18,419 nucleotides of DNA from Candidatus Hermodarchaeota archaeon (GCA_016840065.1 JAEOTB010000036.1:1-18419), one strand, 5' to 3'; shown: positions 1 through 18,419, counted from the stretch's first letter. Translations and numbers: made by a program. Notes: generated from the sequence alone by a model not told the origin.

Positions 1-24
1 ACTGTGACGGTATTCAGGCGATAA
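1..24 (+). CDS. 3' end of an upstream gene (…TVTVFRR*), possibly an SCP2-like/archaeal thiolase-domain protein
   Basis: Frame 1 reads ACT GTG ACG GTA TTC AGG CGA TAA. A hydrophobic beta-strand followed by RR-stop resembles thiolase C-termini, and DUF35 genes typically follow thiolases. Only 7 codons are visible. Confidence 0.3.
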   Translation, partial: TVTVFRR

Positions 25-40
25 TATTTGCAATGGATGA

Positions 41-556: not shown

Positions 557-560
557 GAGG
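556..560 (+). promoter_or_regulatory. Shine-Dalgarno site for the second DUF35 gene
   Basis: GGAGG overlapping the upstream stop codon, 9 nt before ATG 570. Confidence 0.7.
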
Positions 561-569
561 ATATGACAT

Positions 570-1040: not shown

Positions 1041-1083
1041 TCTCTCCTATCCCTACAAAGGATGGCAGTGATAATCAAAGAGC

Positions 1084-1099
1084 CTAGCTCACTAGCTAG
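1084..1099. other. Short perfect hairpin between convergent genes
   Basis: CTAGCT-CACT-AGCTAG in the 1041-1117 convergent gap. Confidence 0.3.
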
Positions 1100-1117
1100 A
1101 ACTCCGTATCCCTTCTT

Positions 1118-1411
1118 CTAGCCTCCAGCGCAGCGAGGTCGTCGGTAGGTGAGCTGATACCGCACCAGAAAGGAATCTCCCTCTTCCCGTTCAAAATCGA
1201 CCATGTCGAGGCTAATGGGTCCTGTAGGGTTTAGCTCGAAAATCAAATCTTCGAAGTAATCATATACTCCGCAGGTGTGGCAGAATGATCCAGAGAAGCG
1301 CACGACTAGCTCGTTGTTGTCAAAGCGGATGAACTCTGCTGTGGCCTCAGGGCTTCTGTATCGGTTAAAGCTAGCAATAGCGTGGCGTATGGTCTCTGGA
1401 AGATCATGCAT
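1118..1411 (-). CDS. Conserved archaeal hypothetical protein with CxxC, NifU-C/NfuA-like
   Basis: 97 aa. ELVVRFSGSFCHTCG resembles the NifU-C motif (V-x-V-x-L-x-G-x-C-x-x-C). It fills the gap between neighbours on the same strand as the upstream operon. Confidence 0.7.
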   Translation of the reverse strand: MHDLPETIRHAIASFNRYRSPEATAEFIRFDNNELVVRFSGSFCHTCGVYDYFEDLIFELNPTGPISLDMVDFEREEGDSFLVRYQLTYRRPRCAGG

Positions 1412-1433
1412 GATGTTCGCATCTAATAATTTG

Positions 1434-1451
1434 CCTTATAGAAGGTTTTGG
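1434..1451 (-). promoter_or_regulatory. Candidate BRE/TATA promoter for a leaderless transcript of the CxxC gene
   Basis: Minus strand reads CCAAAACCTTCTATAAGG. The TATAA element ends about 25 nt before ATG 1411 and no SD is present. Confidence 0.35.
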
Positions 1452-1473
1452 TTTTACAAAGACCAAGAAACGG

Positions 1474-2385
1474 TTATTTTGGGTCAGGGAACAGGCTTCT
1501 CGAAAAGCCCAAAGCCAGAACTTGGATAATAGAAGTACGGGATTCGTGAGGAAACACCTCGATTTCATGTAAGAAGCGGTCTCTAACAGCATTTAATACC
1601 GCAGTTTCTGGTGCTTCTCCTTGCCAGGCGTCAACAATAGTATCACGCCAAGTATCAAGTGTTGCTAAGGCACGGTCAAAGGTCTTGTTTACTTCGGGAC
1701 CTGTTGCAACGCCGAAATGCGAAAACACTAGATAGTCAGGCTCATATCCTTTCAGCTTCTCCAAAGATGTCCGGTAGATGTCATATTTGAAGGAGGGTGG
1801 AAAAGCCGTTGGCAGCACAGTATACCTCTGAGGGCCTAGGAGGCCTGCTGCATCGCCAGTGTAGAGGGTTCTTGACTTCCGCTCAAAATACGCTAGGTGA
1901 TCTGAGGTGTGTCCCGGTGTGCTCACTGCCTCGATTTCCACTCCCCGTCCCAAATCAATCACTTCACCGCCTTTCAATTCCTCTGTCGACGCAGTTGAGG
2001 GCAAGGGTATGATATCCTCAGCAAATGGTCCAAAGAGTTGTCGTGCACCAGCATTCAATCGTTCAGGATTATGTAGTGTGGCTAAGGCGTATTTGTGACC
2101 AGCGACGACCGCCTCTGGGAGTCCTTTTACGAGGGGTGTTGTGCCGCCGCAGTGGTCTCCATGTCGGTGTGTGACAAGCACGTATCGAACCTCATCAGGT
2201 GGTATCTTTCGCTTCTCTAGTTCAGAAAGAATGCGGGGACCACAACTTGAATGACCTGTCTCCACAACGGCAGTGTCAGAACCTTGTACGAGAAGTATCC
2301 CGGTTGTGCGTGGGCTTTTCCAGCCTTGCACATCGATTAGCTCGATGGGCTCGGATAGACGCTGCGGTTCCATAATGTAAGGCAA
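1474..2385 (-). CDS. MBL-fold metallo-hydrolase (glyoxalase II-like superfamily)
   Basis: THRHGDHCGG (HxHxDH), TPGHTSDH, LYTGDAAG, FSHFG. TTG start is supported by AGAGGAG about 8 nt upstream; alternative ATG at 2373. Confidence 0.92.
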   Translation of the reverse strand: MPYIMEPQRLSEPIELIDVQGWKSPRTTGILLVQGSDTAVVETGHSSCGPRILSELEKRKIPPDEVRYVLVTHRHGDHCGGTTPLVKGLPEAVVAGHKYALATLHNPERLNAGARQLFGPFAEDIIPLPSTASTEELKGGEVIDLGRGVEIEAVSTPGHTSDHLAYFERKSRTLYTGDAAGLLGPQRYTVLPTAFPPSFKYDIYRTSLEKLKGYEPDYLVFSHFGVATGPEVNKTFDRALATLDTWRDTIVDAWQGEAPETAVLNAVRDRFLHEIEVFPHESRTSIIQVLALGFSRSLFPDPK

Positions 2386-2443
2386 TAAATAATCTCCTCT
2401 GTTCCTAGCGTTCTCCTGTGTAGCGGTCGGTAACGTTGGTTGA

Positions 2444-3613
2444 TTACTTTTCTCTTTCGATTATTGTAGCGGTTCCCAGACCTAAGCCGCAGCACATTGT
2501 CACGAGACCGAAGCGGAGATTGCGGTCCTCCAGTGCGTTGAGGGCGGTGGTGATTAAGCGTACACCAGAAGCTCCAAGGGGGTGTCCTAAGGCGATGGAG
2601 CCTCCATGGGCTGATAGGCGTGGGTCGGTTAGTGGATCGAAGCCTAGCATCTTTCCTGTGGCAATCGGTACACTGCTGAACGCTTCGTTCACCTCTAAGA
2701 TGTCCATATCCTCTAAGGCAAGGCTGGCTCGTTCAAGGCAGGGGGGAGTAGCGTAGATAGGTCCTTCCAGACAGATAACCGGTTCGACGCCTACAACAGC
2801 CTGCGCTTTGACAAGTGCACGAGCTTTCAATCCTAGCTCATCCGCTTTTTCTCGGGACATTAGCATCACTGCTGCCGCACCATCATTGACAGGGCAGCTG
2901 TTTCCAGCAGTAACCACTCCACCAAAGAGAGGTGGTAGTGATGCTAGTTTCTCCATTGAGGTGTTACGGCGTGGGCTCTCGTCTTGTTTGACGAGTTTGA
3001 CGCCCCCATCCTCTTGGGGAGCTTCAATCGGTACTACTTCTTTATCGAATTTGCCTGCATCCCAGGCTGCAACGCCTTTCTGATGACTCCATAGGGCAAA
3101 CTTGTCCATCTCCTCCCGCGTGATTTCATACTTTTCCGCTATCTTTTCGGCACTCATGGGCATCGGGATGAACTGGTATTTCTGAATCAATTTCGGATTG
3201 AAACATAAATATCCTTCACCAAAATCAGCACCTATTGGCAGCAATGACATATGCTCAACGCCCGCTGCGATAACGATGTCTGCGTTGTCTGTGGCAATGG
3301 ATTGTGCAGCAAAATTCAGAGCCTGCTGGGAGGAACCACAAGCTCGATTCATTGTCATTCCCGGAACTGTGTAGGGAAAGTCTGCGCCTAGCAAGGCTAG
3401 CCTCCCGATATTCGCGCCTTGCTGTGCTGTCTGAGTGTTACATCCCATCATAACGTCATCGACTTGCTTTGGGTCGACCTCGTTTCGTTTGACTATTTCC
3501 CGTAGGACATGAGAAGCCAACTCGTCGGGGCGGACCTTGGCAAAGGCCTTTCCCCGTTTACCAATTGGTGTACGTATAGCGTCTACGATTACAGCTTCAC
3601 GAAGCTCTTTCAT
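2444..3613 (-). CDS. fadA: Acetyl-CoA C-acyltransferase (3-ketoacyl-CoA thiolase)
   Basis: RTPIGK start motif, catalytic NRACGSS, NEAF, GHPLGASG and TMCCGLGLG motifs; AAGGAG SD upstream. Confidence 0.95.
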   Translation of the reverse strand: MKELREAVIVDAIRTPIGKRGKAFAKVRPDELASHVLREIVKRNEVDPKQVDDVMMGCNTQTAQQGANIGRLALLGADFPYTVPGMTMNRACGSSQQALNFAAQSIATDNADIVIAAGVEHMSLLPIGADFGEGYLCFNPKLIQKYQFIPMPMSAEKIAEKYEITREEMDKFALWSHQKGVAAWDAGKFDKEVVPIEAPQEDGGVKLVKQDESPRRNTSMEKLASLPPLFGGVVTAGNSCPVNDGAAAVMLMSREKADELGLKARALVKAQAVVGVEPVICLEGPIYATPPCLERASLALEDMDILEVNEAFSSVPIATGKMLGFDPLTDPRLSAHGGSIALGHPLGASGVRLITTALNALEDRNLRFGLVTMCCGLGLGTATIIEREK

Positions 3614-3634
3614 GATGTATTTTTCTCCTTGAGG

Positions 3635-4423
3635 TTATTCGCCTGAGTATTTCGGTTTCCGCTTCTGTAGAAATGCAGAGACCCCTTCAATGAAGTCTTT
3701 TGTAGAGAAAAGTTTGCCGAATGATTTGGCTTCTAGTTCAAGCCCTTTCTCAAATGAGCCATATAGGCTCTGATTGATGCACTGCTTGGCTAGCTGTAAA
3801 GCTATTGGGGACTCTGAAGCAAGCTCTTTGGCGAAGTTCAAGACATCTTCCTCGAAGGATTCATTGGGCACTACCTTGTGAACTAACCCTATTTCCAGTG
3901 CTTCCTTCGCGGAGTACCGCTTTGATAGCATTATGGCTTCCTTTGCCCTGGCTATGCCAATGATGCGAGGTAGTCGCTGGGTGCCACCTCCCGCGGGGAG
4001 CAGAGATAATCGGACCTCTGTTAGTCCCATCTTCACTCTCTCTGCAGCTATCCGGAAGTCACAGGCTAGGGCGATTTCACATCCTCCACCAAAAGCGTAG
4101 CCATTTATTGCAGCTATCACTGGTTGAGGTAGCTTCTCAATCCGATGGAATAGTTTGTGAGCCATTGTGGCTAGTTCCTGCGCTTTCTCTGGTGTTGTTC
4201 CAGCACCATATGCTGTTAGGTCTGCACCGGCAGAAAACGCCTTTTCTCCTGCGCCAGTTAAGATCAAGACCCAGATTTCCCTGTCCTTCTCAATCTCAGT
4301 GAGTGCCTTACCTATATCTTCGATTAGTTGAAGATTGAATGTATTCAGTTTTTCGGGGCGATTTAATACGAGCCACGCAGTCTTGTGTTCAGGCTCCCTC
4401 TTCAGTAAAACAGTCTCGTACAT
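3635..4423 (-). CDS. Enoyl-CoA hydratase/isomerase (crotonase family)
   Basis: LNRPEKLN, FSAGADL oxyanion motif, GGGCE and TEV (both catalytic Glu), PAGGGTQRLPR, EGVSAFLQKRKP. Confidence 0.95.
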   Translation of the reverse strand: MYETVLLKREPEHKTAWLVLNRPEKLNTFNLQLIEDIGKALTEIEKDREIWVLILTGAGEKAFSAGADLTAYGAGTTPEKAQELATMAHKLFHRIEKLPQPVIAAINGYAFGGGCEIALACDFRIAAERVKMGLTEVRLSLLPAGGGTQRLPRIIGIARAKEAIMLSKRYSAKEALEIGLVHKVVPNESFEEDVLNFAKELASESPIALQLAKQCINQSLYGSFEKGLELEAKSFGKLFSTKDFIEGVSAFLQKRKPKYSGE

Positions 4424-4430
4424 CTTATCT

Positions 4431-4499
4431 TCCTCAAACCGATTTGAGTCGAATAGGTATTGTTCTTCCGACTCAAAAAGGCTTAAGGTACCATGGTAC
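4431..4499 (-). promoter_or_regulatory. Structured leader/regulatory region of the crotonase-thiolase operon
   Basis: Perfect 9-bp inverted repeat TTTGAGTCG (4443-4451) / CGACTCAAA (4469-4477); perfect 12-bp palindrome GTACCATGGTAC (4488-4499); SD GAGGA (4435-4431) 7 nt before the ATG. Confidence 0.5.
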
Positions 4500-4523
4500 A
4501 GGTGTTTAATTGATTCAACTACT

Positions 4524-5837
4524 CTAGTTGAGAATTAGGGTTTGTCCCTTAGTGGCAGCTTCTGCTGTGAACCCATATTCGCTTCGAAGTGTCTCTGCGA
4601 GGCTGTTACAGGCAACAGTATCGCCATGCATCGTCAGTATCTGGGGATTCCCCCTAGCATTGCGGAGGAAGTCCAGAACTTCCCCACGATCAACATGACA
4701 TGAGAAGTTGAAGGACTTGACCTTCGCCCTAACATGTAGCCTCTGACTAGAACCGTCTCTGGAGTGTAAGGTTAGGCTTCCTGTATCTAGAAGTTCTGCA
4801 CCTGGAGTACCTTGCAGTTGTTTACCTACCAGCAACACGCTGCTTCTACGGTCATCAGCAACAGCTCGGAGGTAATGCAACGCGGAGCCTCCTTTGAGCA
4901 TACCAGCTGGTGCTATGATAATCGCGGGGTCTTCTAGCGCCCGTCTTCGATCTGAAGCATTTCGCACAAAAGTGACGCGCTTAGCTGCCCGTTGGAGTTG
5001 AGGGCCACCAGTGAAGGATTGAGTATAGCGTTGCATCACACTGGTGACAGATTTAGCCATACCGTCGATATAGATGGGATAGTCAAGACCATGGCTGCGG
5101 TATTTGTGGAGTACACTTAGTACCTCCTGAGAGCGCCCCACTGCGAAGGCGGGAATCAAGACGGTTCCCCTTTCCTCAAGGGTAGCGCGCACGGTTTCTA
5201 CAAAGGTCTGCTCAACCTCTTTCCTTGGTGGATGCTCAGACAGAGCGTATGTGCTTTCCACTATGACGAAATCAAGTTCGCCTATCTCTTGTAGGCTAGG
5301 TGCACCTTGCACTAACTGGGTAGCTCTTGTGTTTAGGTCACCAGTATAGAGAATGCGGGTGGAGCCGCTTCCATTCCCTTCGATTTCCACGAGGATCGAA
5401 GCACTACCTGGTATATGTCCGGCATCCAGTAGGGTGACCCCAACCTTATCGCTAACTTGGTGCCTTTGGCCATAGGCTAAGGCTTGTGTGTTCTTTAGTA
5501 AGTGTTCTACTTCTTGTCGCTCAAAGGACAGGCTAGCACCACCAATCCGGAGCATATCCTTTAACAGTAATTTCGATAAGGCGCGAGTAAGCGCTGTAGT
5601 GTAGACAGGAACTGGCTGTGTGTGGCTTCCCGCGAGGAGTGGAAGGCTCCCACTATGATCTAGGTGAGCGTGGCTTAGAACCGCGGTCAAGTTCCGGGTA
5701 GATGTAGGTAATGGGGTACGGTGTTCTCCCTTGAACGCGACGCCATAATCCATGAGGACTCGGGCGCCCTTGTGTTCGATTAGCACTGCTGAGGCGCCTA
5801 CCTGTTGGCATCCGCCTAGAAATGTAATTTGGGTCAT
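4524..5837 (-). CDS. beta-CASP metallo-beta-lactamase ribonuclease lacking KH domains (aCPSF2/aCPSF1b-type, CPSF73-like)
   Basis: FLGGCQQVGAS, MDYG, SHAHLDHSG, AGHIPG, YTGD, ESTY, PAFAVGRSQE, GMLKGG, FSCH (motif B) and MHGD (motif C). At 437 aa there is no room for N-terminal KH domains. GGAGG SD at 5851-5847. Confidence 0.92.
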   Translation of the reverse strand: MTQITFLGGCQQVGASAVLIEHKGARVLMDYGVAFKGEHRTPLPTSTRNLTAVLSHAHLDHSGSLPLLAGSHTQPVPVYTTALTRALSKLLLKDMLRIGGASLSFERQEVEHLLKNTQALAYGQRHQVSDKVGVTLLDAGHIPGSASILVEIEGNGSGSTRILYTGDLNTRATQLVQGAPSLQEIGELDFVIVESTYALSEHPPRKEVEQTFVETVRATLEERGTVLIPAFAVGRSQEVLSVLHKYRSHGLDYPIYIDGMAKSVTSVMQRYTQSFTGGPQLQRAAKRVTFVRNASDRRRALEDPAIIIAPAGMLKGGSALHYLRAVADDRRSSVLLVGKQLQGTPGAELLDTGSLTLHSRDGSSQRLHVRAKVKSFNFSCHVDRGEVLDFLRNARGNPQILTMHGDTVACNSLAETLRSEYGFTAEAATKGQTLILN

Positions 5838-6178
5838 CTAGTAATCCCTCCCTGATTTAAAGTGTGAAAGCGTCGTCTGCTGATATGCAGAATCGACTAG
5901 GGTATTTTGATTAGTCTTAATTTGCAATATTTCTATTTCCTATGTTTTCTTGTTTTCCGCACCTGCCTCAAACGAGTCGTCTACCCAGACGCGAGACACT
6001 ATAATGGGAATCATAGCGCTAGGTGTTCGCCTCTTGCAGGACGGGTGAAATCACGTTGTCTCTAGATTCAATCCCAAATTGTAACTAAAATTAGAAACTG
6101 ATAGGAGGAAGCTAGGTAATTCCGTTTATTCACTCTAAGCCTCCTCAGATATGCGCGCACTTAAACATTCCTATTTTT
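5838..6178. other. Long (341 bp) non-coding gap with several stem-loops; possible structured RNA or UTR
   Basis: Hairpins at 5872-5897 and 5978-5991, a multibranch fold closed by GAGACA/TGTCTC (5993-6062), and a 9-bp stem 6105-6113/6138-6146. No ORF of 60 aa or more. Confidence 0.3.
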
Positions 6179-7084
6179 TCAGGCTGTGCTAATGCATGGG
6201 AAATGACCAAAAAGATCTTGGTAGCGGTCCTGCAGTCCTTGTAGAATCTTGTAGGGTACTTGGGCTGAGCCAAGGGGGGCTTTACCTTCTATTGCTCCGT
6301 GGTAATCAGAGCCTCCTGTCAAGACTAAATCGTACTGATCGGCTAACTGTTTCAGCTGCGCGAGTCGCTGTGGAATATTATCATACCACTCCTTAGAACG
6401 CCCTGCCACGTACTTGTAAGGATAAAGATGCTCAACACCCTGAAGACCCATTGGACAGAGTTTTATTAGCAATTCCTCGATTGGTGCTTTAATGGTGAAA
6501 GGGTGAGCAATGACAGGAAGTCCACTAGCATCTAGAATAGTTCGAATCCCTTCAGCGATGGTTGGTCTTGGACGCTGTGCATAGGCGGGGCGTCCATATC
6601 CGAGGTACTTGTCGAACGCTTCTTCGAAGGAGGATACATAGCCCTTGCGGATCATAACTTGTGCTAGGTGTGGGCGACCGATAGCCTCCCCGCAAACTTC
6701 CGCTTCCACCTCTTTTTGGTCGATGTCGATTCCCAACTGTCGCAGCTTTGCCAGCATCTTAGGTAGCCGTTCAGTTCGCCCTCTTCGCATACCCTTGAGT
6801 AACCGAGTGATGCCGGGGTTTGCGAGGTCAAAGTAGTAGCCCAGTAAGTGAATGCTTTTCCGCTCCCACTGACAGCTAATTTCCACACCGGGCACCACCG
6901 TTATACCAATCTTTGAACTCGCTTCCAAGGCCTCCGCTATCCCTGACACAGTATCATGATCTGTGATTCCCACTGCTCGAAGACCTAGATGGTGGGCTGT
7001 CTCTAATACTTGCGAAGGAGTATCCGAGCCATCAGAAGCGGTAGTATGAATATGGAGGTCTACAAAAGATGTCAAATTATTCAA
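6179..7084 (-). CDS. PHP-domain phosphoesterase (TrpH/YciV/RNase AM-like)
   Basis: DLHIHTTASDG, ITDHDT, PGVEIS, IHLLGY, GRPHLA, IAHP, TGGSDYHG motifs. Confidence 0.93.
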   Translation of the reverse strand: MNNLTSFVDLHIHTTASDGSDTPSQVLETAHHLGLRAVGITDHDTVSGIAEALEASSKIGITVVPGVEISCQWERKSIHLLGYYFDLANPGITRLLKGMRRGRTERLPKMLAKLRQLGIDIDQKEVEAEVCGEAIGRPHLAQVMIRKGYVSSFEEAFDKYLGYGRPAYAQRPRPTIAEGIRTILDASGLPVIAHPFTIKAPIEELLIKLCPMGLQGVEHLYPYKYVAGRSKEWYDNIPQRLAQLKQLADQYDLVLTGGSDYHGAIEGKAPLGSAQVPYKILQGLQDRYQDLFGHFPCISTA

Positions 7085-7093
7085 TCCTTATTA

Positions 7094-7990
7094 CTATTCG
7101 AAGGAGAGTGTGGGGAGGTGTTGACGGATAAACTGGAGCGACTCCTGCGCCTCCTTCATGGTTAATTCAAAGATGATAGCGCCCTTGTAATTTTTCTCCT
7201 GCAGATGAGTGAGTAACTCAGTGGTTGGTAGTTGCCCCTTTCCTAGAGCCTTATGATCTACACGCTTCACGAGTCCTCCTTCAATCACCTGATAACTCCC
7301 GTCATGTAAATGAATCTCGGCGATTCGGTCATAGTATCGCTTCACAAACTCTAGCGTTTCGATAGAACCAGATTGACCAGAAATCAGATGCCCAGTATCA
7401 AGACAGATGGAAGTATCAAGTCGTTCAGCAATCTTCCAGGTCACGTCAAAGGGAAACTCGACGTTTTCCAAGGCAAGACGACGTGGAGGGATTTTCGTCC
7501 GCTTTAATAATTCACGGATGCTTCTCTCTGCCACACTTACAAAATATCCGGCGATGATGCTCTTGAAGAGTTTTGGCAGTTTGAGGCGGCTAAATTCTGC
7601 AGCCAGCGAACCTGTCGCATGCACTACGTAAACCTCTGGTTCAAGGGGTTTCACAAGGTTCACCGCATCTACCAGACAATCTACTGATGCTTGGCGTATG
7701 TATTCGTTGGGACAAGACAGCTCTATCGCCCACAGGGGCAGGTGCGCTGTAAAGGTTAACCCCAGCTCCTCTTTGACTGCTAGAATACGTGCCACGGATT
7801 CCTCAGTTAGCCCTCCTGGTAATACGTACCTAACATCCATTGACAGCTCCATTAAAGAGAAACCCTGCTGGTGAGTTGCACGAAGAATATCTGCGAAGTT
7901 AAACCGGCCGAAATCTAATGCGCATTCGCTCCCCGCTATCTCGATGACATTCGCTAGCTCAAGCGGTGTAATTCCAAAACGCATTATCAA
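7094..7990 (-). CDS. AP-endonuclease-2/xylose-isomerase-like TIM-barrel metalloenzyme, CbiR (cobamide-remodelling phosphodiesterase)-like
   Basis: TAHLP, VVH, LALENVEFP, CLDTGH, EIHLHDG, DHKALG, IIFE metal-binding pattern. The fold is confident; the CbiR subfamily call is tentative. Start TTG 7990 or ATG 7984. Confidence 0.8.
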   Translation of the reverse strand: MIMRFGITPLELANVIEIAGSECALDFGRFNFADILRATHQQGFSLMELSMDVRYVLPGGLTEESVARILAVKEELGLTFTAHLPLWAIELSCPNEYIRQASVDCLVDAVNLVKPLEPEVYVVHATGSLAAEFSRLKLPKLFKSIIAGYFVSVAERSIRELLKRTKIPPRRLALENVEFPFDVTWKIAERLDTSICLDTGHLISGQSGSIETLEFVKRYYDRIAEIHLHDGSYQVIEGGLVKRVDHKALGKGQLPTTELLTHLQEKNYKGAIIFELTMKEAQESLQFIRQHLPTLSFE

Positions 7991-8135
7991 GACGCCCCAA
8001 GCTTTCTATTTTAACAGTAAGGAAGCTATGAAATTCAAGGTCATTAACGTAGCTCTTTAACCAAACATACAAACAGAAAATGTAAAAGGAACCTATACCT
8101 GCTAACCTTCACATTGAATCAGGAGTAGGAAAAAT

Positions 8136-8900
8136 ATGCCTCTTGTAGAACTGGAGAAAGAGAATCAAGTTGCAGTAATCACAATCAATAACCCGCCAGC
8201 GAACGCCCTCAACACCGAGATCTTCAAGACTCTCCGTGAGATGTTTACAGAACTTGACCAGGATGACACAAAGGTCATCATCCTTACTGGTGCAGGTGAC
8301 CGATTCTTCATCGGCGGCGCTGACATCAAACAATTCACAGGTCTTGACGCCAAGACTGCTGAGAAGCTTGCCCGCAAGGGACAGGAATTCACCCTCTTCA
8401 TTGAACAGCTAAGCAAGGTCATAATCGTCGCGGTTAACGGGTTCTGCCTTGGGGGTGGCATGGAAATCTCCCAGGCCTGCGACTTCATAATAGCATCAGA
8501 AAAGGCAAAATTCGGTCAAACCGAAATCAAACTCGGCATCATACCTGGGTGGGGTGGCACCCAACGCCTTCTCCGCTGGATGGACCCACAGCGTGCCCGA
8601 GAACTGATACTAACGGGCGAGATTGTTCCCGCCTCGGAGATGGGATCCTTCTGCTACAAGGTGGTTACCCCCGATCAGCTCCTTCCCACGGCAAAAGAGT
8701 TGGCTCAACGCATCGCCTCTCATGGGCTAGTAGCTGTTAAACTCGCGAAGATGGCGATGAAACAGGCCTTGTACCTGCCACTAGAGGAGGGGTTAAAGCT
8801 GGAGGCTCGCTATTTCGGAGAGACCTTCGCCTCCGAAGATGGCAAAGAGGGCGTAAAGGCCTTTATCGAAAAACGCAAGCCAAAAATTGTTGACCGCTAA
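8136..8900 (+). CDS. Enoyl-CoA hydratase/isomerase (crotonase family), second paralog
   Basis: INNPPANAL, FIGGADI, GGGME and TEI catalytic Glu residues, PGWGGTQRL, EGVKAFIEKRKP; AGGAG/AGGA upstream. Confidence 0.95.
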   Translation: MPLVELEKENQVAVITINNPPANALNTEIFKTLREMFTELDQDDTKVIILTGAGDRFFIGGADIKQFTGLDAKTAEKLARKGQEFTLFIEQLSKVIIVAVNGFCLGGGMEISQACDFIIASEKAKFGQTEIKLGIIPGWGGTQRLLRWMDPQRARELILTGEIVPASEMGSFCYKVVTPDQLLPTAKELAQRIASHGLVAVKLAKMAMKQALYLPLEEGLKLEARYFGETFASEDGKEGVKAFIEKRKPKIVDR

Positions 8901-8932
8901 GGTTAGAATGAGGAGTAGAAGGCTCCTAACCT
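8900..8932 (+). other. 3' stem-loop after the crotonase stop codon
   Basis: AGGTTA-(GAATGA bulge)-GGAG-TAGAAGG-CTCC-TAACCT; no T-tract follows. Confidence 0.3.
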
Positions 8933-8991
8933 GCGTCTAGAGGCTCTAGAGTACATTAAGCCAAGAGATATTAGACTAGACACACTATTCT

Positions 8992-9006
8992 GGAAATGTA
9001 TATAAA
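8992..9006 (+). promoter_or_regulatory. Archaeal BRE-TATA promoter of the giant surface-protein gene
   Basis: GGAAATG followed by TATATAAA (8999-9006), implying a start site near 9030. GGTGG SD at 9077-9081 is 7 nt before ATG 9089. Confidence 0.6.
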
Positions 9007-9088
9007 GTGAGCCCTCGCATTCTTCATTACTCTACATGATAGGCCAGATGGGAGAAGACTAGAATTCTCCATCTATGGTGGTCTCTAC

Positions 9089-12000: not shown

Positions 12001-15000
12001 TACAGGATATATCACGGGCTACTACACCATTCAAGGCCACGGCGATGGAACCTACACAGTGACATTCTTCGGCAACCTCACAGAAACTACCTACTATGTA
12101 ACCATAGCCTTCACTCGAACCAATCACACTGGTCAGAGTCAATACTTCGAAATCACAATTCGTGAAGTGTACACAACAAGCTACGGCTCTGCCGATCCCG
12201 CCTCTGTAGCTTGGGGTGACAATGTTAGCATCACATTAAATTACAACGACACTGACCACAGCTATGCAGGCATTGATGGAGCTACAATCTCCTTCACATG
12301 GCAAGATGATATCGCTGGAGTTGACTACTGGATAACTGACAACAACGACGGTACCTACACTATCTTATTGAGCACATTGAAGGTAGCATCAGGCACACAG
12401 AACTTCCTGATAACGTTCGAATCATCAAAAACTCACTACGAAAACGCTACGGCAATGGTATCCTTCCAAGTCCGAGATATACTATCAGCCCTCTACATTG
12501 TATCCATCGAACCAGGTACGTCTGTACCTTGGGGCGACACTATGACAATCGTCTTGACCTACAATGACACAGAACACAGTTACATACCAATTATTGGCGC
12601 TGTGATTAGCTGTGATTGGGACACATTCTATTGGAGCTTTGCGTACAACGCTACAGACCAGACCTACATACTAACAATCAATACAGCGAGTCAAAACGAA
12701 GGCAGTTACTCCCTACACATCTATGCCAATTGTGATCACTACACAACTGGAATGACCATCCAGTCCTTTGTAATCCGTGAAATACAGACAGGCTTTACTG
12801 TTGATCCAGTATATGTTGGAGCTCACCCGTGGGGTGACAACATCACATTCACCCTAGTGTACTTGGACCTCGACCACGGTGGGAACATCACTCTTGCCGA
12901 AATTGAAACGGACTGGGATCCTGGTTACTTCACCTTCTACTGGTATCTTAATGGTTCCTACGCGATGGAACTCGATACAACTTGTAAAGGTTTAGGAATC
13001 TACTCGGTCGAATTCGTACTCTACCGAAACCACTATGCTAACGCTACGGTCACAGTCCAGATAGTCATCATCCCCCGACCGCTCTTTGTGGCAGTACTCT
13101 CTACTTCACCCGTGACTGTTGATTATGGAGGTGACGTCGTTGTCACCGTTCAAATCACTGACCATCACGGATACCGTATCAACGATTCCACGACAGTATT
13201 CCGCTGGGGAGGCCATGCAGATGTAGCTATGTCCTTTATCGGCAATGGTGTTTGGAACGTGACCTTTACCGCGAACGAAACTATAGGCACCTACATTGTT
13301 ATTGTAGAAACAAGTAAAACTTACCACCAGACAGCTATAGGCTCCGTCACATTGAACATCTTACCAATCGGCACAACATTGACCATCCTAAACGGCACTA
13401 TTACTATCCTTGTTGGAGACACCTTCCAAATCATGGCGAACTTCACTGATGAACACGGTACTCCACTCACTAGTGATGTAACCATGTTCTTCACCTGGGC
13501 TGACAAACCGACAGAATACTTCACTCATCTTGGTGATATTCTAGGCAGCGCCTACAACGGGATGTACAATGCAACGCTAAACAGTACCGGTCTCTCCTAT
13601 GGCGTAACGTACATTGTCACTGTCATTGGACTCTGCCCCAACCACGTGGATGGGTTCGATGTAATTTCAGTAAACGTAATTGCAATGCCTGTCAGTCTCG
13701 AGATAGACTTTCCACACCTTGATGTCCCCTGGGGTGAAAACTTCACTATTGAAGTCTACTTCAACAATACCTACAGTAACTCACCCGTAACTGGTGCGTT
13801 AATAATCTGGCACTGGGATGGTGAAATGGGATACTTCATTGAAGGGGTACCCCCATCACCTGGCTCAATACCACCAGCTGCTGGCGACTATTACATCACA
13901 CTCCAAACAGACCAAATGACTGTGGGTGAAGGATATTCATTGGTTGTTGAAGTCGACCATCCAGGTATGCAATACACCAAGGTTGCCATAGACGTCAGTG
14001 TTATCGCGACGCCAACGCTACTCGACGAAGAATACGCCCAATCCTACTACGGACCAACAGGCTACATAGACCTTGAGCCCATATACGAGGCTCCAATCGG
14101 TGATGAACTTCACGTCTACTACAACTTCAGCTATGAAAACGGAGACCCAGTTACAACTGGTGCAGCTACCTACTACTGTACCTTCGACACCGGTAACCTC
14201 GAATATAACGCGACTGAATTATTCTGGTGCGCCAAAATCGATCTCACAGGAGTACCAGTAGGACTCTACACCCTCAATGTACTCTTCGTTGTTCCCAACC
14301 ACGAAACGGGTTCGATGGACATAGACTTCCGTGTGATTGAAGTGCCAACACAGGTTCGACTTGATACATCTCTTGAAATCGCTACTACAAATAACACAAT
14401 AGAAGTATTTACTGGAACACCTTTCGACTTCAAAGTCATCTACTGGGATACCCACCACGACATACCTATCTCCGAAGCTCTAGTCAGATTCGAAAGTACC
14501 AATCTCTGGGCTCAAACGGATATGACAGACAGCGGCAACGGATATTACACTGCTAGCGGTCTAAGCGTCGCTATTGATGGATCCTATCGTATAGACATCT
14601 CGGCTCAGGGTGAAACAAAACACGCTCAAGGACAAATGACCATAACACTGGTAGTCAAGACTCACCCACTTGTGGCCCTTGGCTTCCAGAGCGGACTCCT
14701 AATCGCGCTGATTGGGTTGATGATAATCATCGGATGGCTCATCTACACCCGACTCTTCGCTATTCCATGGTTCGTCCGCAAATGCCGGAGCATGGCTCGC
14801 ACCATTGGTCGAGGCAAGCACCCCCACCTCTCTGACCGCGACCGCCAGCGCCTACCCCAGCGACCGGTCCAGATGATAGACATCGTGGACGACAGCTACG
14901 ACACAATCGGAGTCAAAGTCACAGCAGCGATGATTCCTGCCGCCCTCGCCCTTGAGGAGCGGGAGGCAGAAGATGATGTCATCTGGCGAGAGCTAGAAGC

Positions 15001-15328
15001 ACTGGAGGGTCTTGGCCCTGAGCAGAAACGAGAACTCTTCGAGGAGATGCGCCGCATCCCTGCAAAGGACCGAGTCTGGTTCCTAGAAGACCTCAAACGC
15101 CAGCTAGCCGACGGCACACGCTTCGCCCACACAACAGCAGACGCAGCTCGCGAGGCACCACCAGAGACTGTTGCACCATCAGGGGTTGATCCCGCCATCG
15201 CAGCGCGGGTGGAGGCCCTCAAGACACTCGGCCCAGAAGAGAAGCAGGCAATCCTAGCACAGCTAAGCACTCTCTCCAAGGCTGAACAAGAAGCAGTCAT
15301 CATGACCCTCGAAGAGGGCGAAAGCTAG
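9089..15328 (+). CDS. Giant (2079 aa) type-I membrane surface glycoprotein with tandem Ig-like repeats and a cytoplasmic helical tail
   Basis: N-terminal signal peptide (MRNTTKILTIIFFLCTVMCMG); Thr/Tyr/Asp/Asn-rich beta ectodomain with roughly 50 N-x-S/T sequons by manual count; single TM GLLIALIGLMIIIGWLIY (aa 1869-1886) followed by a basic patch (RK, R, R, RGK); charged helical C-terminal tail. Confidence 0.9.
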   Translation: MRNTTKILTIIFFLCTVMCMGTQAPSGQGLTRGLPAPNSPHTGSGITFDVYEFAKNVSALYTDGDNETDFTFNSANYPTGYEGYRMHTMVSGLGRTFDALQGFNGDFDAGWAELGGNWTETTDQGVVTSIYNTSGGSPDQCLALEMKGGNVRWGKYNEIDDWFYYMPSLEPSLATCSFSIKYGSDLTGKLEFSVQLYSPIVSPSTLLNEWVLDISTPWAPTHGYDVWHNESFTTDTYGISGPILLRIKVLKVHDNGAVKGHVYFDNFKYTLLTDCTPTEVQLALNGTALQDGLLNDGSVDIYADPANMTEAPMTNTWETDQLFQFTTNDTSIHYDYNYTMYVKSLDADAATSTFTAPVDEDPTWEINYTIPTTGSPPTTPIEYTGYCYGIFLDTAWTLTSVRNHTGHAISTYTYNTTSYFVKLDEDVPSADETFSIYASSSNYILEMIPQKAASSSGPWTNLTSGDYYIKGDWMRVLVLLNDIGAETKYANVSVFYPNRDLWMSNNTPVYDTYSNSFVAGGWQIPQLVNASDAGRTAGSDWLITATFNTNKQSGMREKSMTAAIETYGTKIAPNDGLRVIWGDTITVNATWTNQDNSVNITDASLARIRFIDRYSQIQYVVMSPNGYGSYSTDLATDLMTPDRTAQFQVEMFGYGYVNVSYDEGTHLSYTINLVNDLDLIMVKPTQKVGENYEAETTSVAGYVSQVRFYDTYQEDYVQNASIWINTEVVYNYYEDTGSGFGGVISTGSFIPDAADPTLYERNDTSYTGVARVKYECNMTITNPSTWDYEQQNFTIIIWIVQFQTNLDAIRTTVTYPPTGTGDGWTQYDAASDGYEVNVYWREKLNITVYYTNESTGQGIGDASANLTIDTSMSSMSNVGGGYYYYSLNTSTVGIGSTDLYVNATRAEHATQTIKIRLIVVARATTLTKDQPGSTKTLPYDEDFAIVFTYQDSVPTVPDPLENATGEVGCTVTGYITGYYTIQGHGDGTYTVTFFGNLTETTYYVTIAFTRTNHTGQSQYFEITIREVYTTSYGSADPASVAWGDNVSITLNYNDTDHSYAGIDGATISFTWQDDIAGVDYWITDNNDGTYTILLSTLKVASGTQNFLITFESSKTHYENATAMVSFQVRDILSALYIVSIEPGTSVPWGDTMTIVLTYNDTEHSYIPIIGAVISCDWDTFYWSFAYNATDQTYILTINTASQNEGSYSLHIYANCDHYTTGMTIQSFVIREIQTGFTVDPVYVGAHPWGDNITFTLVYLDLDHGGNITLAEIETDWDPGYFTFYWYLNGSYAMELDTTCKGLGIYSVEFVLYRNHYANATVTVQIVIIPRPLFVAVLSTSPVTVDYGGDVVVTVQITDHHGYRINDSTTVFRWGGHADVAMSFIGNGVWNVTFTANETIGTYIVIVETSKTYHQTAIGSVTLNILPIGTTLTILNGTITILVGDTFQIMANFTDEHGTPLTSDVTMFFTWADKPTEYFTHLGDILGSAYNGMYNATLNSTGLSYGVTYIVTVIGLCPNHVDGFDVISVNVIAMPVSLEIDFPHLDVPWGENFTIEVYFNNTYSNSPVTGALIIWHWDGEMGYFIEGVPPSPGSIPPAAGDYYITLQTDQMTVGEGYSLVVEVDHPGMQYTKVAIDVSVIATPTLLDEEYAQSYYGPTGYIDLEPIYEAPIGDELHVYYNFSYENGDPVTTGAATYYCTFDTGNLEYNATELFWCAKIDLTGVPVGLYTLNVLFVVPNHETGSMDIDFRVIEVPTQVRLDTSLEIATTNNTIEVFTGTPFDFKVIYWDTHHDIPISEALVRFESTNLWAQTDMTDSGNGYYTASGLSVAIDGSYRIDISAQGETKHAQGQMTITLVVKTHPLVALGFQSGLLIALIGLMIIIGWLIYTRLFAIPWFVRKCRSMARTIGRGKHPHLSDRDRQRLPQRPVQMIDIVDDSYDTIGVKVTAAMIPAALALEEREAEDDVIWRELEALEGLGPEQKRELFEEMRRIPAKDRVWFLEDLKRQLADGTRFAHTTADAAREAPPETVAPSGVDPAIAARVEALKTLGPEEKQAILAQLSTLSKAEQEAVIMTLEEGES
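11597..14660 (+). repeat. About 10 tandem ~100-aa Ig-like beta-sandwich repeats (protein level), plus a more distant copy near aa 581
   Basis: Recurring V-x-(W/Y)-G-(D/E)…Y-x-D-x-x-H…I-x-x-A…W…(D/N)-G-x-Y-x-I-x-L-x-T…H-Y. Anchor residues are at aa 840, 939, 1042, 1148, 1248, 1346, 1442, 1548, 1670 and 1775 (spacing 96-122 aa). Confidence 0.8.
14981..15310 (+). repeat. Duplicated 38-aa helical module in the cytoplasmic tail
   Basis: IWRELEALEGLGPEQKRELFEEMRRIPAKDRVWFLEDL (14981-15094) versus IAARVEALKTLGPEEKQAILAQLSTLSKAEQEAVIMTL (15197-15310): ungapped, 10/38 identical, with a conserved hydrophobic pattern. Confidence 0.85.
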
Positions 15329-15352
15329 CCAACATCTCAGTCGAACACAAAA

Positions 15353-15423
15353 ACAGGCGCGTAACAACACCGGCAAACACCGGTTAGGAACGCGTCTGTC
15401 TCTCCTCTTTTTTCCTATTTTTT
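15353..15423 (+). terminator. Stem-loop plus oligo-T terminator after the giant gene
   Basis: ACAGGCGCGT (15353-15362) pairs with ACGCGTCTGT (15390-15399, one G-U); upper stem ACCGG/CCGGT; then a pyrimidine tract with two T6 runs (15408-15413, 15418-15423). Confidence 0.65.
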
Positions 15424-15445
15424 ATATAGCATGCGTTAATGCTAT
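15421..15445 (+). promoter_or_regulatory. TATA box overlapped by an inverted-repeat operator candidate
   Basis: TTTATATA at 15421-15428 and ATAGCAT-N6-ATGCTAT at 15426-15445. No purine-rich BRE upstream, which weakens the call. Confidence 0.4.
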
Positions 15446-15494
15446 TAGGTGGATTCAGTAGCATACTTTCCTCTCAGGAGAAAAACTATTCACG

Positions 15495-16271
15495 GTGAAT
15501 TTGGAAATGCCAGGAGCGAACGAATCAGAAAGCAGATTATTGCTCAAACTCATTAAGGAGCGCCACGCCATCCGTGATTATGATACAAAAAGAATGGTAA
15601 GTGACGAGCTCCTCTATCAAATAATTGAAGCAGGTGGTTATGCCCCTAGCGCGGAAAACCAGCAACCTTGGCGGTTAATCATTGTTCGTGATCGCGCCAA
15701 ACAAAGGCGAATCGGTGAAATCGCCGTTGACCGTACCATCGAACTCTTCGGTCGTATCACTCCTCGACAGGAATTGGAACGCCGGCTTGATTACGTTCAG
15801 GCGATACCAAGCCGTGAACGAACCATCGACTGGCTGATTACAGGAAGGCGCTTCGAATACATCAAAGGTGAACCTGAGACTGACGGCGCCCCAATACTAC
15901 TGGTATTAGCTGTCGAGTCAACACATGTCGGTAATTCTCAACCCACACTCCGAGGAACTGGCGGTGTATATGGTTGGAGCAGCTATCGACACGCGGTCAT
16001 CGCTGGCAGCATGCTAATGGAAAACATGATGTTAGCCGCTACCGCCTTGGGGCTTGGGAGTTGTGTTTCCAGTGTCCAACTTGACCATTTTGACGATGTC
16101 CGCGAAATATCTGAGTTGCTGGGGATTCCACATCCTCACTGGGTCCCGATTCTATGTCTTGCCATCGGCTATGCGAAATACCCACGGACTCGTGGACCAC
16201 CACGACAAACACCTGAGGAAATCACATTCGTGGACAAATGGGGAGCGAACTGGCAACCAAAACGTGATTGA
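15495..16271 (+). CDS. Nitroreductase-family flavoprotein (FMN-binding)
   Basis: ERHAIRDY (RRSIR-like), APSAENQQPWRLIIV, ENMMLAATALGLGSC, LAIGY. Start GTG 15495 or ATG 15507. Confidence 0.9.
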   Translation: MNLEMPGANESESRLLLKLIKERHAIRDYDTKRMVSDELLYQIIEAGGYAPSAENQQPWRLIIVRDRAKQRRIGEIAVDRTIELFGRITPRQELERRLDYVQAIPSRERTIDWLITGRRFEYIKGEPETDGAPILLVLAVESTHVGNSQPTLRGTGGVYGWSSYRHAVIAGSMLMENMMLAATALGLGSCVSSVQLDHFDDVREISELLGIPHPHWVPILCLAIGYAKYPRTRGPPRQTPEEITFVDKWGANWQPKRD

Positions 16272-16288
16272 TGCGGGAGGATTAGAAG

Positions 16289-16813
16289 ATGAACTCATTA
16301 ACTACACTACAGAAATTCTTCACGAGTTGGATGGATCAACTTTGGTGGAGTATGCGTGATCGCGTCGGAGCATTATCGATGATTGAATGTTGGGTCGAAT
16401 CATGGCGGGCAGCGAGTATTGAAATCAGCAAATTAGCTCAGGTTGACGGTTTAACACCCCAAGAAACAGCAGAGAAGATCCTTGAGATGTTAGGTAAAAC
16501 CGTTCAGGTTCAGGGAAACACTATCCATATCACGAAATGCCCAATCTGGGACCGAATAAAAGAAAGAGGTCTAGAATACGCCTATCGCTGCGAAGAGTTC
16601 GCTTGTACACCATTACTACAAGCAACTGGAGCTTCTGAAGTATCGGTGGAAACCAGTTTACGCTTAATGCACTTAGAACGCGCAAGACTTGAGTACAAAA
16701 TTGCAAAGACCGGAAAGGCGGCAACAAGCGATTCTAAGGCAGAGCGTGAGAAACTCGAAAAAGAGTTGAAGCGGCTGCCCAAACAACCTCACTGCCTATT
16801 TAAAATAAAGTAA
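16289..16813 (+). CDS. Hypothetical protein, V4R/ATC-hydrolase/MetOD1-like Cys pattern with a coiled-coil insertion
   Basis: IHITKCPIW (C84), RCEEFAC (C101, C106) and terminal HCLFKI (C169); GGGAGG SD upstream. Confidence 0.65.
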   Translation: MNSLTTLQKFFTSWMDQLWWSMRDRVGALSMIECWVESWRAASIEISKLAQVDGLTPQETAEKILEMLGKTVQVQGNTIHITKCPIWDRIKERGLEYAYRCEEFACTPLLQATGASEVSVETSLRLMHLERARLEYKIAKTGKAATSDSKAEREKLEKELKRLPKQPHCLFKIK

Positions 16814-16834
16814 CACGGTATCAATTATAATCTG

Positions 16835-18232
16835 GTGCTAGGGATGTGCTCAAAGACGTCACATCAGGAGTTGACGGGTCTTTTCGCTCCCAAATCCATT
16901 GTACTAGTAGGTGCAAGCTCGAATCCCCAATCCTTGGGTTTTACTGTCGCCCGTGCTCTCCTCCAACAATTCGAAGGGCCAGTCTACTATCTAAGCCCAA
17001 CAGAAGCCAAGGTTTTAGGTTCTCCCACCTTTGCTAGAATTGAAGAAATCCCCCAAGGGCAACATCTCTGGATTTTCGCAGCAGTGACGAAGGATTTCCC
17101 AGTCCTTCTTCAGCAGATAGGTGAAAGAACCCCCGCGGCTCTAATGTTATTAATGGAAATTCCTAGTCATATCGAATCAGAAGCATTGAAGGTTCTTACG
17201 GGGATTAAATGCCCAATTATTGGTCCTCGGAGCGCTGGCTACCTTGATACAGCCACAATGCTCGACACAATAACACTTCCCAAAGATATGATTCAGCGGC
17301 CACCTTCAGGTGCCACAGGCGCCCTTACTGATAATCGGGATGTCGCATTCGGGTTACTAGAACTCCTGAGCAAATATCGGTGCGGTGTTTCTCAAGTAAT
17401 AGATCTTGGCGATGCTATTGGCGTCGATGAATCTGATGTGCTTTCCTACTTCGCTGGCAATCCAAGCACTCGGGTTATTCTGCTAGCAAGTGGGCAGATA
17501 GCAAGGCTGAGGAAATTCAAAACAGCTATTCGAAGCGCCAAACGTGCCAAGAAACCGATAATCGTTCCACAGTTCTCTGAGGAAATAGTCGGTATGCTCG
17601 GACTCCACCGACGAACTGACAATGGAGTATCTGATATCACAAAAGAGCTAGTTGATGAACTTGGGCTGATACAAACCAGTTCCTGGGGGAGAGCCGTGGA
17701 TTTAGCCAAGCTCTGTCAGTGGCAGCCTCTCCCAAAGGGTCCAGGCATAGCAGTCATCTCGAATTTCGGACCTTACTGTGTCAATGCTGCCAGTAGCCTT
17801 CAAGATTCCAAAATGAACGTGGCACATCTTGCTGCAGAAACCCTCCGTCAATTACAAGACAAACTCCCTCCGTATTGCAGGGCGAATAATCCCACCTGTC
17901 TTTACACCAATGCTGACGAAATCCGTCTCGACACTGCTCTACAAATCGTGTTTCCTGACCCATCCGTTCATACAGTAATGCTCTGCTTACTCCCCACTTC
18001 GCCGTTTATCGATTCAGATTATCTAGGTATAATGCTTCGCCAGCGCCTTGCTAGAATAAAAACTCCCAAAACGATGATTGGAGTCATCCCTGCAACCGAG
18101 CCTGACAATCTATTAGTCCAGTCTCTTGAGCAACTCCAAATCCCTGTCTATTCTAATCCTCATCGAGCGGTTAGCACGTTGGAAACAGCCTATAACTATG
18201 TCAGCTCTACACTAAAAACAAGGAGAAAATGA
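16835..18232 (+). CDS. ADP-forming acyl-CoA synthetase alpha-subunit homolog (CoA-binding plus ligase domains), highly divergent
   Basis: LFAPKSIVLVGASSNP..LG CoA-binding start, IIGP..G, KKPII, PLPKGPGIAVISN, LPP…NP, DPSVHTV, IPVY..P.RAV. Several catalytic motifs are altered. Start GTG 16835 or ATG 16844. Confidence 0.85.
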   Translation: MLGMCSKTSHQELTGLFAPKSIVLVGASSNPQSLGFTVARALLQQFEGPVYYLSPTEAKVLGSPTFARIEEIPQGQHLWIFAAVTKDFPVLLQQIGERTPAALMLLMEIPSHIESEALKVLTGIKCPIIGPRSAGYLDTATMLDTITLPKDMIQRPPSGATGALTDNRDVAFGLLELLSKYRCGVSQVIDLGDAIGVDESDVLSYFAGNPSTRVILLASGQIARLRKFKTAIRSAKRAKKPIIVPQFSEEIVGMLGLHRRTDNGVSDITKELVDELGLIQTSSWGRAVDLAKLCQWQPLPKGPGIAVISNFGPYCVNAASSLQDSKMNVAHLAAETLRQLQDKLPPYCRANNPTCLYTNADEIRLDTALQIVFPDPSVHTVMLCLLPTSPFIDSDYLGIMLRQRLARIKTPKTMIGVIPATEPDNLLVQSLEQLQIPVYSNPHRAVSTLETAYNYVSSTLKTRRK

Positions 18233-18234
18233 AA

Positions 18235-18419
18235 ATGTACAAAGCATACGTTTTGATTAAGGTCGTCCCACACGCAGAAGATAAAATCCTGAGAGAACTC
18301 AGCAAAGTTCCCGCAATCACCGAGGCACACAAGCTCTTCGGAGTTTATGACCTCATTGTTGAAATCGAAAGAAAGGGAATGCGAGAAATCATGGAAAGCG
18401 TTTCTCGGATTCGCAGCCT
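18235..18419 (+). CDS. Stand-alone Lrp/AsnC ligand-binding (RAM) domain protein, truncated by the window edge
   Basis: Not in the ORF track. Translates MYKAYVLIKVVPHAEDKILRELSKVPAITEAHKLFGVYDLIVEIE…IRS, with AYVLI and G-x-YDLIV signatures and no HTH. AGGAG at 18221-18225; an in-frame ATG at 18229 overlaps the upstream TGA. Confidence 0.88.
   Translation, partial: MYKAYVLIKVVPHAEDKILRELSKVPAITEAHKLFGVYDLIVEIERKGMREIMESVSRIRS

Follow-up and report, generated by a model that had tools for sequence, protein, structure and literature searches.

A gene for a giant surface protein, located in an 18,419-nucleotide stretch of DNA from an uncultured Candidatus Hermodarchaeota archaeon (GCA_016840065.1, JAEOTB010000036.1:1-18419; the whole stretch is referred to as the window), ends in the coding sequence for a tail that contains two homologous modules. 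According to structure prediction, the roughly 50 residues of each copy fold into an acidic antiparallel bundle of three helices, with a disordered tether between the copies, and the predicted topology places the two-module tail in the cytoplasm. We consider it probable that this tail is a docking platform for a conserved intracellular partner, module 1 being the specific site and module 2, like the extra copies present in some relatives, adding reach and avidity. Neither the domain family nor its location behind the membrane anchor of surface giants in archaea seems to have been described before.

The duplicated module

Translation in frame 1 assigns nucleotides 14981-15310 of the window to residues 1965-2074 of the tail. 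Within this segment the core E-A-L-x-x-L-G-P-E-(Q/E)-K occurs twice, as EALEGLGPEQK at residues 1970-1980 and as EALKTLGPEEK at residues 2042-2052. When the tail is compared with itself, the best ungapped match of 38 residues lies at an offset of exactly 72 residues and has a BLOSUM62 score of 48, a value which was reached by one of 5000 composition-preserving shuffles of residues 1901-2079 and by none of 5000 shuffles of residues 1951-2079. Profile comparison with hhalign gave the same result: profiles of copy 1 and copy 2 built from 20 homologues align over 46 ungapped columns (probability 95.7, P 9.9e-9), those built from 38 tails of two lineages over 49 columns (P 3.5e-8), and the set of tails from the lineage of the window protein alone yields a P of 1.2e-10. 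In addition, a hidden Markov model (HMM) of copy 2 detects copy 1 in the window protein (domain E 7e-4). The two lineages are designated Hermod-type, to which the window protein belongs, and Thor-type; all taxon names are the uneven labels of the sources, and the genomes are metagenome-assembled genomes (MAGs) that are 60-99% complete.

The initial annotation, which was made from the DNA sequence alone, had described two ungapped copies of this core separated by an Ala/Pro-rich linker, the second one ending near the C-terminus. Both copies are read in the translation and are supported by the shuffles and by hhalign, the linker (residues 2010-2033) is indeed rich in Ala and Pro and also in Thr, and module 2 ends at residue 2079. 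The length of 38 residues that had been given for the duplicated module has to be revised: the duplication is real, but the structural unit comprises about 46-54 residues. The positions and properties of all segments of the protein are listed in Table 1.

Table 1 Segments of the giant surface protein encoded in the window. Identities are regional mean pairwise values for Hermod-type paralogues and for the Thor-type
Feature	Residues	Window position	Strand	Properties	Identity Hermod-type	Identity Thor-type
Giant type-I surface protein gene	2079 aa	9089..15328	+	From open reading frame list and translation		
Single transmembrane helix	1865-1887	14681..14749	+	Hydrophobic stretch; AlphaFold2 helix, pLDDT 89-97; aligned in 38/38 tails	43%	24%
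Basic juxtamembrane segment	1888-1926	14750..14866	+	Net charge +8; motif around FAIPW-x-VR-K	51%	43%
Middle segment	1927-1955	14867..14953	+	Short acidic stretch, then hydrophobic IGV...MIPAALAL; AlphaFold2 pLDDT 48-61	35%	32%
Module 1	1956-2009	14954..15115	+	Three helices; net charge -7; most conserved part of the protein	60%	52%
Ala/Pro/Thr-rich linker	2010-2033 (24 aa)	15116..15187	+	pLDDT <50; gapped columns in 38-tail alignment	37%	20%
Module 2	2034-2079	15188..15325	+	Three helices; net charge -5; ends at C-terminus	42%	40%

No repeat between the two copies was found at the DNA level; a recent duplication was therefore rejected, and the duplication must be old. In the 38-tail alignment across both lineages, each of the two copies pairs with the copy at the same position. 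Hermod-type and Thor-type profiles of the same position match each other with a P of 5e-7 each in hhalign, whereas the cross pairs gave a P of 0.019 (Hermod-type copy 1 with Thor-type copy 2) and of 2.6e-6 over a shorter stretch (Thor-type copy 1 with Hermod-type copy 2). Because same-position pairs outscore cross pairs, the profile comparison, in which such short profiles are weak evidence, suggests that the duplication is older than the split between the two lineages.

Architecture of the protein and topology of the tail

In the 2079-residue protein, a signal-like N-terminus is followed by an ectodomain rich in sequons, a single membrane helix, and about 190 residues of tail. The ectodomain comprises about 1860 residues after the hydrophobic signal-like segment and contains 53 N-x-S/T sequons, compared to about 20 expected from its composition; when the whole protein was searched against Pfam, the ectodomain gave weak matches of the Ig-like and Invasin_D3 type only. 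The 187-residue tail (14765-15325, residues 1893-2079), on the other hand, contains no asparagine and hence not a single sequon. According to the positive-inside rule, a stretch with eight net positive charges directly behind the membrane helix indicates that the following segment, and thus the tail, is cytoplasmic. The signal-like N-terminus, the distribution of sequons (53 in the ectodomain, 0 in the tail), and the basic stretch therefore all agree with the intracellular location of the modules that had been assumed from the beginning. Within the juxtamembrane motif, a proline and an arginine (alignment columns P44 and R48) are invariant in all 38 aligned tails.

The combination of signal peptide, numerous sequons, and C-terminal anchor is that of S-layer-type anchored glycoproteins, and the protein is probably an N-glycosylated, single-pass surface giant, glycosylation being a prediction from the sequence. 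Archaeal S-layer-type glycoproteins likewise possess a signal peptide, a sequon-rich ectodomain with Ig-like repeats, and a single C-terminal membrane helix. Their sequence stops a few residues past the membrane anchor, whereas the anchor of the window protein is followed by about 190 conserved residues that are predicted to be cytoplasmic and to include two folded domains. To our knowledge, archaeal surface proteins seldom carry folded and conserved cytoplasmic domains behind their anchor.

Predicted structure of the modules

All structures discussed here are AlphaFold2 predictions. For the whole tail, an alignment of 21 sequences led to a model with a mean predicted local distance difference test (pLDDT) value of 70.8 and three helices per module. 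With 38 diverse tails as input, residues 1940-2079 were predicted with pLDDT values of 83-89 for module 1 and 77-91 for module 2, the linker staying below 50. The helices comprise residues 1952-1971, 1977-1989, and 1992-2008 in module 1 and residues 2035-2043, 2049-2059, and 2064-2078 in module 2. The three-helix character that had been proposed for each copy is thus reproduced by the prediction, and neither module is predicted to be disordered.

That the region might represent no domain at all, but a charged helical spacer or a low-complexity segment in which composition feigns a repeat, is extremely improbable. About 40% of the module residues are charged, and the module HMM also matches an unrelated Ala-rich repeat protein (P0167). 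Composition-preserving shuffles, however, almost never attain the observed score, the helix breaks (Gly-Pro, Pro) and the core hydrophobic and aromatic positions are fixed across the 38 tails, and AlphaFold2 packs three helices with high pLDDT whereas the true spacer, the linker, remains below 50.

A Foldseek search against the PDB yielded nothing at E <= 0.001 for either model. The first rows were chains of protein A, Z-domains, and affibodies with E >= 0.5, target-normalised TM values of 0.57-0.65, and a root mean square deviation (rmsd) of about 3 A over 55 columns. A structural search against PDB representatives was performed with VIA-align, for which Z values below about 13 are, according to the tool's own warning, common for helical models. 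The top match was the B4 domain of protein A with module 2 (Z 6.8, rmsd 1.5 A over 45 residues), followed for the same module by the XD domains of the P proteins of measles virus (Z 6.1, rmsd 1.9 A over 43 residues) and mumps virus (Z 6.0, rmsd 2.5 A over 47 residues). Three-helix modules of streptococcal and staphylococcal adhesins matched module 1 or both modules (Z 5.4-6.4), among the further three-helix binding modules being a streptococcal beta-protein domain, Embp/Ebh modules, and the CUE1 domain of SMARCAD1, which matched module 1 (Z 4.7, rmsd 2.7 A over 56 residues). Small protein-binding modules with three helices thus account for all of the best structural matches. As the scores are within the noise for helical models, the models point to a generic small antiparallel three-helix bundle, a fold class that is common, and to a fold analogy only.

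The comparison with protein A and GA modules had been made as a fold analogy only, and in this sense it stands: protein A B4 ranks first, with scores that do not show homology. Like the modules of the window protein, protein A B/Z domains and streptococcal GA-type and beta-protein modules consist of about 45-58 residues forming three up-down-up helices, and linkers join them into tandem arrays on large surface proteins. An antiparallel bundle of this size is also predicted by AlphaFold2 here; the fold class is shared, but the structural score does not show kinship. Protein A and GA modules are extracellular, anchored to the bacterial cell wall, and without sequence relation to the archaeal modules, which are located past a membrane helix and a basic segment, are free of sequons, and belong to an Asgard archaeon. 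The Pfam models of the protein A B-domain and of GA were absent from the matches of the window tail at E <= 1 and from the 25 most-matched families of the 38 tails, and no protein A or GA chain was present at E <= 10 in a profile search of PDB sequences. The nucleocapsid-binding XD domain of paramyxovirus phosphoproteins is likewise a minimal three-helix bundle and binds a partner helix; it has no sequence similarity to the modules and an unrelated biological setting, and again the resemblance is an analogy only.

The match to CUE1 is relevant for another interpretation, according to which the modules would be distantly related to three-helix ubiquitin-binding domains of the eukaryotic type and the tail a UBA/CUE-like reader of ubiquitin-like modifiers or an adaptor linked to the endosomal sorting complexes required for transport (ESCRT). 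UBA/CUE domains are cytoplasmic, of similar size, and composed of three helices with a Gly-hydrophobic turn after helix 1, and the module size together with the helix-Gly-hydrophobic-loop-helix pattern recalls them, which we take as a lead only. A tail type with a single module (see below) furthermore ends in a helical part with weak matches to MIT (E 0.028) and TPR (E 0.61). Nevertheless, we regard this interpretation as highly improbable. The CUE1 score is within the noise and below those of protein A and XD, the MIT matches are far under the curated cut-off, and in place of the characteristic MGF/MFP loop in its strict form the modules have GLG-P, GLS, or GLT. At E <= 1 the window tail matched no UBA/CUE model of Pfam, and the 25 families matched most often by the 38 tails included none either, although hmmscan can miss short divergent domains.

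Conservation of module 1

Module 1 has the highest identity in both lineages (Table 1), so that constraint on these proteins is strongest there. Tails are 54-62% identical in pairs whose ectodomains show only 24-30% identity (41% over one shorter local alignment). Three residues of module 1, L1969, F1998, and Q2005, are invariant in 38 of the 38 tails and thus in both lineages, and in Hermod-type tails many polar residues and a V-W-F-L run of this module are nearly invariant as well. Because a single helix cannot bury all of four hydrophobic residues in a row, part of the V-W-F-L run is probably surface-exposed. Across the family, the number of module copies (1-5) and the length of the tether (about 20-190 residues) vary and module 1 is nearly fixed.

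Distribution of the tail and number of modules

A search with the tail region, for which residues 1850-2079 including the membrane helix were used, retrieved 18 other proteins of 1395-2322 residues with 49-59% identity. All of them are unnamed or annotated as 'hypothetical' and originate from MAGs labelled Promethearchaeota, Hodarchaeota, or Hermod; a near-identical tail is present in a MAG titled 'Hermod'. The window tail shares every block with the 37 other aligned tails, i.e. helix, juxtamembrane motif, module 1, variable linker, and module 2. In a survey of the phylum with a single-sequence query, 100 of 400 genomes contained a match. The tail of the Hermod-type family occurs in all 18 other genomes of this type, with up to 8 matches each and often in tandem arrays. 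A large and more distant group with 24-33% identity and open frames of 1500-6500 residues is found in most Thor-type genomes (Thorarchaeota by source names), and the remaining large families of the phylum gave no or weak matches with this query. A profile of the 38 tails retrieved 240 proteins at E <= 1e-3, 122 of them at E <= 1e-30, from 1.84 billion cluster representatives, and in nearly all matches listed the match ended within a few residues of the C-terminus of the protein. The proteins bearing the tail are surface giants of up to about 7100 residues with a single C-terminal membrane helix ahead of it. Apart from the low-complexity match described below, the domain was encountered solely past the membrane helix of Asgard surface proteins. 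The searches of the genome, the phylum, and the representatives thus show that the module is conserved in orthologues and paralogues and in several lineages of Asgard archaea.

The number of modules was determined with a pooled HMM in 192 proteins and was two in 159 of them, three in 10, and four or five in 6. In the members with four or five modules (P0054, P0072, P0146, P0149, and P0153), several of which are fragments at contig ends, module 2 is repeated with acidic linkers. A third subfamily (P0161, P0168, and L078 in G301:C47) has two modules and the juxtamembrane motif Y-Y-Q-W-x-K/R-x-P. Its member P0161 is a seemingly complete protein of 231 residues with only about 20 extracellular ones, encoded on a 1.6-kb contig. 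The pooled HMM also gave nine matches in an unnamed protein of 975 residues with an N-terminal membrane segment (P0167); they fall on Ala-rich repeats of 14-15 residues (M-S-x-E-D-A-A-A-L-L-K-A-L) and probably reflect low-complexity resemblance rather than kinship.

The genome of the window protein, which is 84% complete, encodes a second bearer of the tail, an open frame of 7129 residues on contig 29 (2617-24003, minus strand; tail L004:925-2028:-). This paralogue agrees with the window protein in its membrane helix, its juxtamembrane motif, and the presence of two modules, but here the modules are connected by a Pro/Glu-rich linker of about 190 residues instead of the 24 residues in the window protein. 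Module HMMs revealed no further module copies in this genome beyond these two bearers.

In agreement with the assignment to an unknown family in the initial annotation, Pfam, NCBIfam, PDB sequences, and the ESM Atlas contained no family above threshold for the modules. Pfam searches with the whole protein, the tail, and the 38 tails led to sub-threshold, inconsistent matches to YqbF_HeH, RecX_HTH1, HAAS, BET (3 members), and MgtE_N, and three of the corresponding candidates were rejected: the HeH/SAP-like YqbF_HeH (best E 0.0018 among the 8 of 38 tails that matched; the window tail scored 12.7 bits where the cut-off is 27), the three-helix domain of RecX (RecX_HTH1 in 6 of 38 tails, best E 0.0066, under the curated cut-off), and the helical repeats of MgtE_N and FliG (MgtE_N in 2 of 38 tails, best E 0.16; FliG only in Foldseek, at E 3.1). 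The best profile match among PDB sequences was PcfF with an E of 0.15. In the literature, our coverage of which was incomplete, no description of these proteins or of Lokiarch_08060, a protein treated in the following section, was found.

A second cytoplasmic context of the module

Five genomes that had shown only weak matches were searched with a profile, which revealed two kinds of matches, namely the membrane helix with the juxtamembrane motif in other giants and a lone module in a different family. An example of the latter is a protein of 1567 residues (L079:2266-6966, plus strand; G169:C10). This protein combines an ectodomain rich in sequons and a poly-Gly run with one membrane helix and a cytoplasmic domain that comprises about 480 residues. 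Its module matches the module 2 profile with a P of 4.7e-12 and the pooled profile with a P of 1.7e-13 in hhalign. At least 153 proteins, Lokiarch_08060 among them, possess the domain of about 480 residues with 56-74% identity, and all are annotated as hypothetical. The domain is designated Loki-type; it is its C-terminal helical part that gave the weak MIT and TPR matches mentioned above. A search of the ESM Atlas with the Loki-type tail found only an unnamed archaeal cluster. L075 and L076 are further Loki-type examples. By eye only, roadblock/longin-looking and winged-helix-looking parts can be discerned ahead of the module of L079 and a helical end behind it. An open frame of 1352 residues on contig 69 of the genome of the window protein (C69_+_81765_1352) matches residues 30-274 of the Loki-type domain (phmmer E 9e-31) and lacks the module.

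Loki-type giants share with the window protein the sequon-rich ectodomain, the single membrane helix, and a true copy of the module, but they have one copy instead of two, which is situated between conserved cytoplasmic parts without counterpart in the window protein. Since a lone copy occurs within this different domain, the module is an autonomous unit that Asgard surface giants employ in two or more different predicted cytoplasmic architectures.

The juxtamembrane segment alone also matches giants of Loki-type genomes, which is of interest with respect to the idea that the tail is a tag for biogenesis or sorting, which would be read while these very large proteins are inserted into the membrane, glycosylated, turned over, or placed (e.g. 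in protrusions) and would not act at steady state. The presence of the motif with its invariant Pro and Arg in Loki-type giants without the two-module tail fits this idea, as does the restriction of the tail to very large secreted proteins. We nevertheless judge it improbable: sorting signals are usually short linear motifs, which two folded domains and the strong constraint on module 1 exceed, and a member of 231 residues with almost no ectodomain exists, albeit on a short contig.

Gene neighbourhood

The gene in the window is flanked by genes for fatty-acid/CoA metabolism, nucleases, a nitroreductase, and a V4R protein. Both flanks (1-9088 and 15329-18419) are syntenic with loci of a sister genus (L054-L057 in G104:C34 and G101:C24), with enoyl-CoA hydratases, thiolase, beta-CASP, and PHP on one side and nitroreductase, V4R-like, and ACD-like genes on the other. 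At the position where the genome of the window protein has a single gene, the sister-genus loci contain tandem arrays of three to four paralogous giants. The genes flanking Thor-type giants (LPG-synthase-like, PHP, UbiA, and DUF362) are not common to Hermod-type loci.

CoA-ligase/ACD-like genes are located within a few kb of giants of both types (window 16835-18232; L054:6892-8289; L057:5157-6560; L060:7934-9373; L062:8789-10228). As they are different paralogues of a highly paralogous family with 24-29% identity and differing orientation, their proximity is probably due to chance. A conserved open reading frame of about 565-745 residues without Pfam match is present within about 10 kb of Thor-type giants (L062:10606-12300, plus strand; L061:8608-10788, minus strand; L059:1-2237, minus strand), in the upstream flank in one genome and in the far flank in the other two.

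Possible function of the tail

The docking function that we favour would operate as follows. Module 1 would hold a conserved cytoplasmic partner, or else the same module of a neighbouring tail, and module 2 and the extra copies on flexible tethers would provide reach and avidity. In this way, paralogues with quite different ectodomains could be coupled to one common intracellular component. The occurrence of one tail on many ectodomains, both in the genome of the window protein and in sister genomes, speaks for such a function, as do the predicted fold with its resemblance to protein-binding modules, the stronger conservation of the tail compared to the ectodomain, the size of the family and its C-terminal position, the usual presence of two or more copies, and the autonomy of the domain. 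The net charges of the modules (-7 and -5) argue against binding of nucleic acids or anionic lipids, and a role as helix-turn-helix domain for DNA or RNA binding was rejected for the same reason.

Several points weigh against docking. No partner gene was detected in the neighbourhoods; the neighbours are metabolic, and none is common to Hermod-type and Thor-type loci except the CoA-ligase-like paralogues. The two copies are only weakly alike within Thor-type tails alone (hhalign P 6e-4). The module structure is a prediction from 38 sequences and not a solved one, and all structural scores are below chance level for helical models, which makes the fold nonspecific about function. The read sets listed include no RNA run, the DNA sets being marine-sediment metagenomes of one study, which is probably the source. 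Finally, module 1 might equally owe its high conservation to self-association or to a function in biogenesis.

With self-association, the modules would bind to modules or to the basic juxtamembrane segments of neighbouring tails and thereby knit the giants into a sub-membrane lattice or cluster without any soluble partner. The failure to find a partner gene in any neighbourhood examined is in line with this, as are the paralogues within a genome that share the tail and differ in their ectodomains, the position of acidic modules (-7, -5) beside a stretch with a charge of +8, and the variable copy number, which would tune valency. Yet the near-invariant polar residues of module 1 in Hermod-type tails fit a heterologous partner equally well, and we hold self-association as the sole function to be unlikely.

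Regarding the partner of a docking tail, a further-reaching proposal is that the tail forms the membrane-proximal end of an Asgard-specific transmembrane linkage from the diversified giants to the actin cytoskeleton, ESCRT, or a small-GTPase/roadblock system. We see this as distinctly unlikely. Variable ectodomains on one conserved tail are a familiar logic of metazoan adhesion receptors, and protocadherins, cadherins, and integrins resemble the giants in their paralogous arrays, their diversified ectodomains, and a shared cytoplasmic part presumed to bind common intracellular proteins. The comparison is one of architecture alone, no relation in sequence or fold having been found. If such a linkage were true, the archaeal relatives of eukaryotes would have evolved a prokaryotic equivalent of the outside-in coupling known from cadherins and integrins.

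Significance

The modules described here constitute one domain family that is common to hundreds of Asgard surface giants and forms their most constrained part. The family merits a domain model of its own, as its bearers are at present annotated as plain hypothetical proteins. If the tail only clusters the giants, it would still be a new building block of archaeal envelopes, though of narrower interest. If the module binds an intracellular component, a soluble bait of 50-130 residues would offer a handle on how the surface coat, protrusions, and cell-cell contacts of Asgard archaea connect inward, and this connection between surface and interior is tied to the origin of eukaryotic cell organisation.

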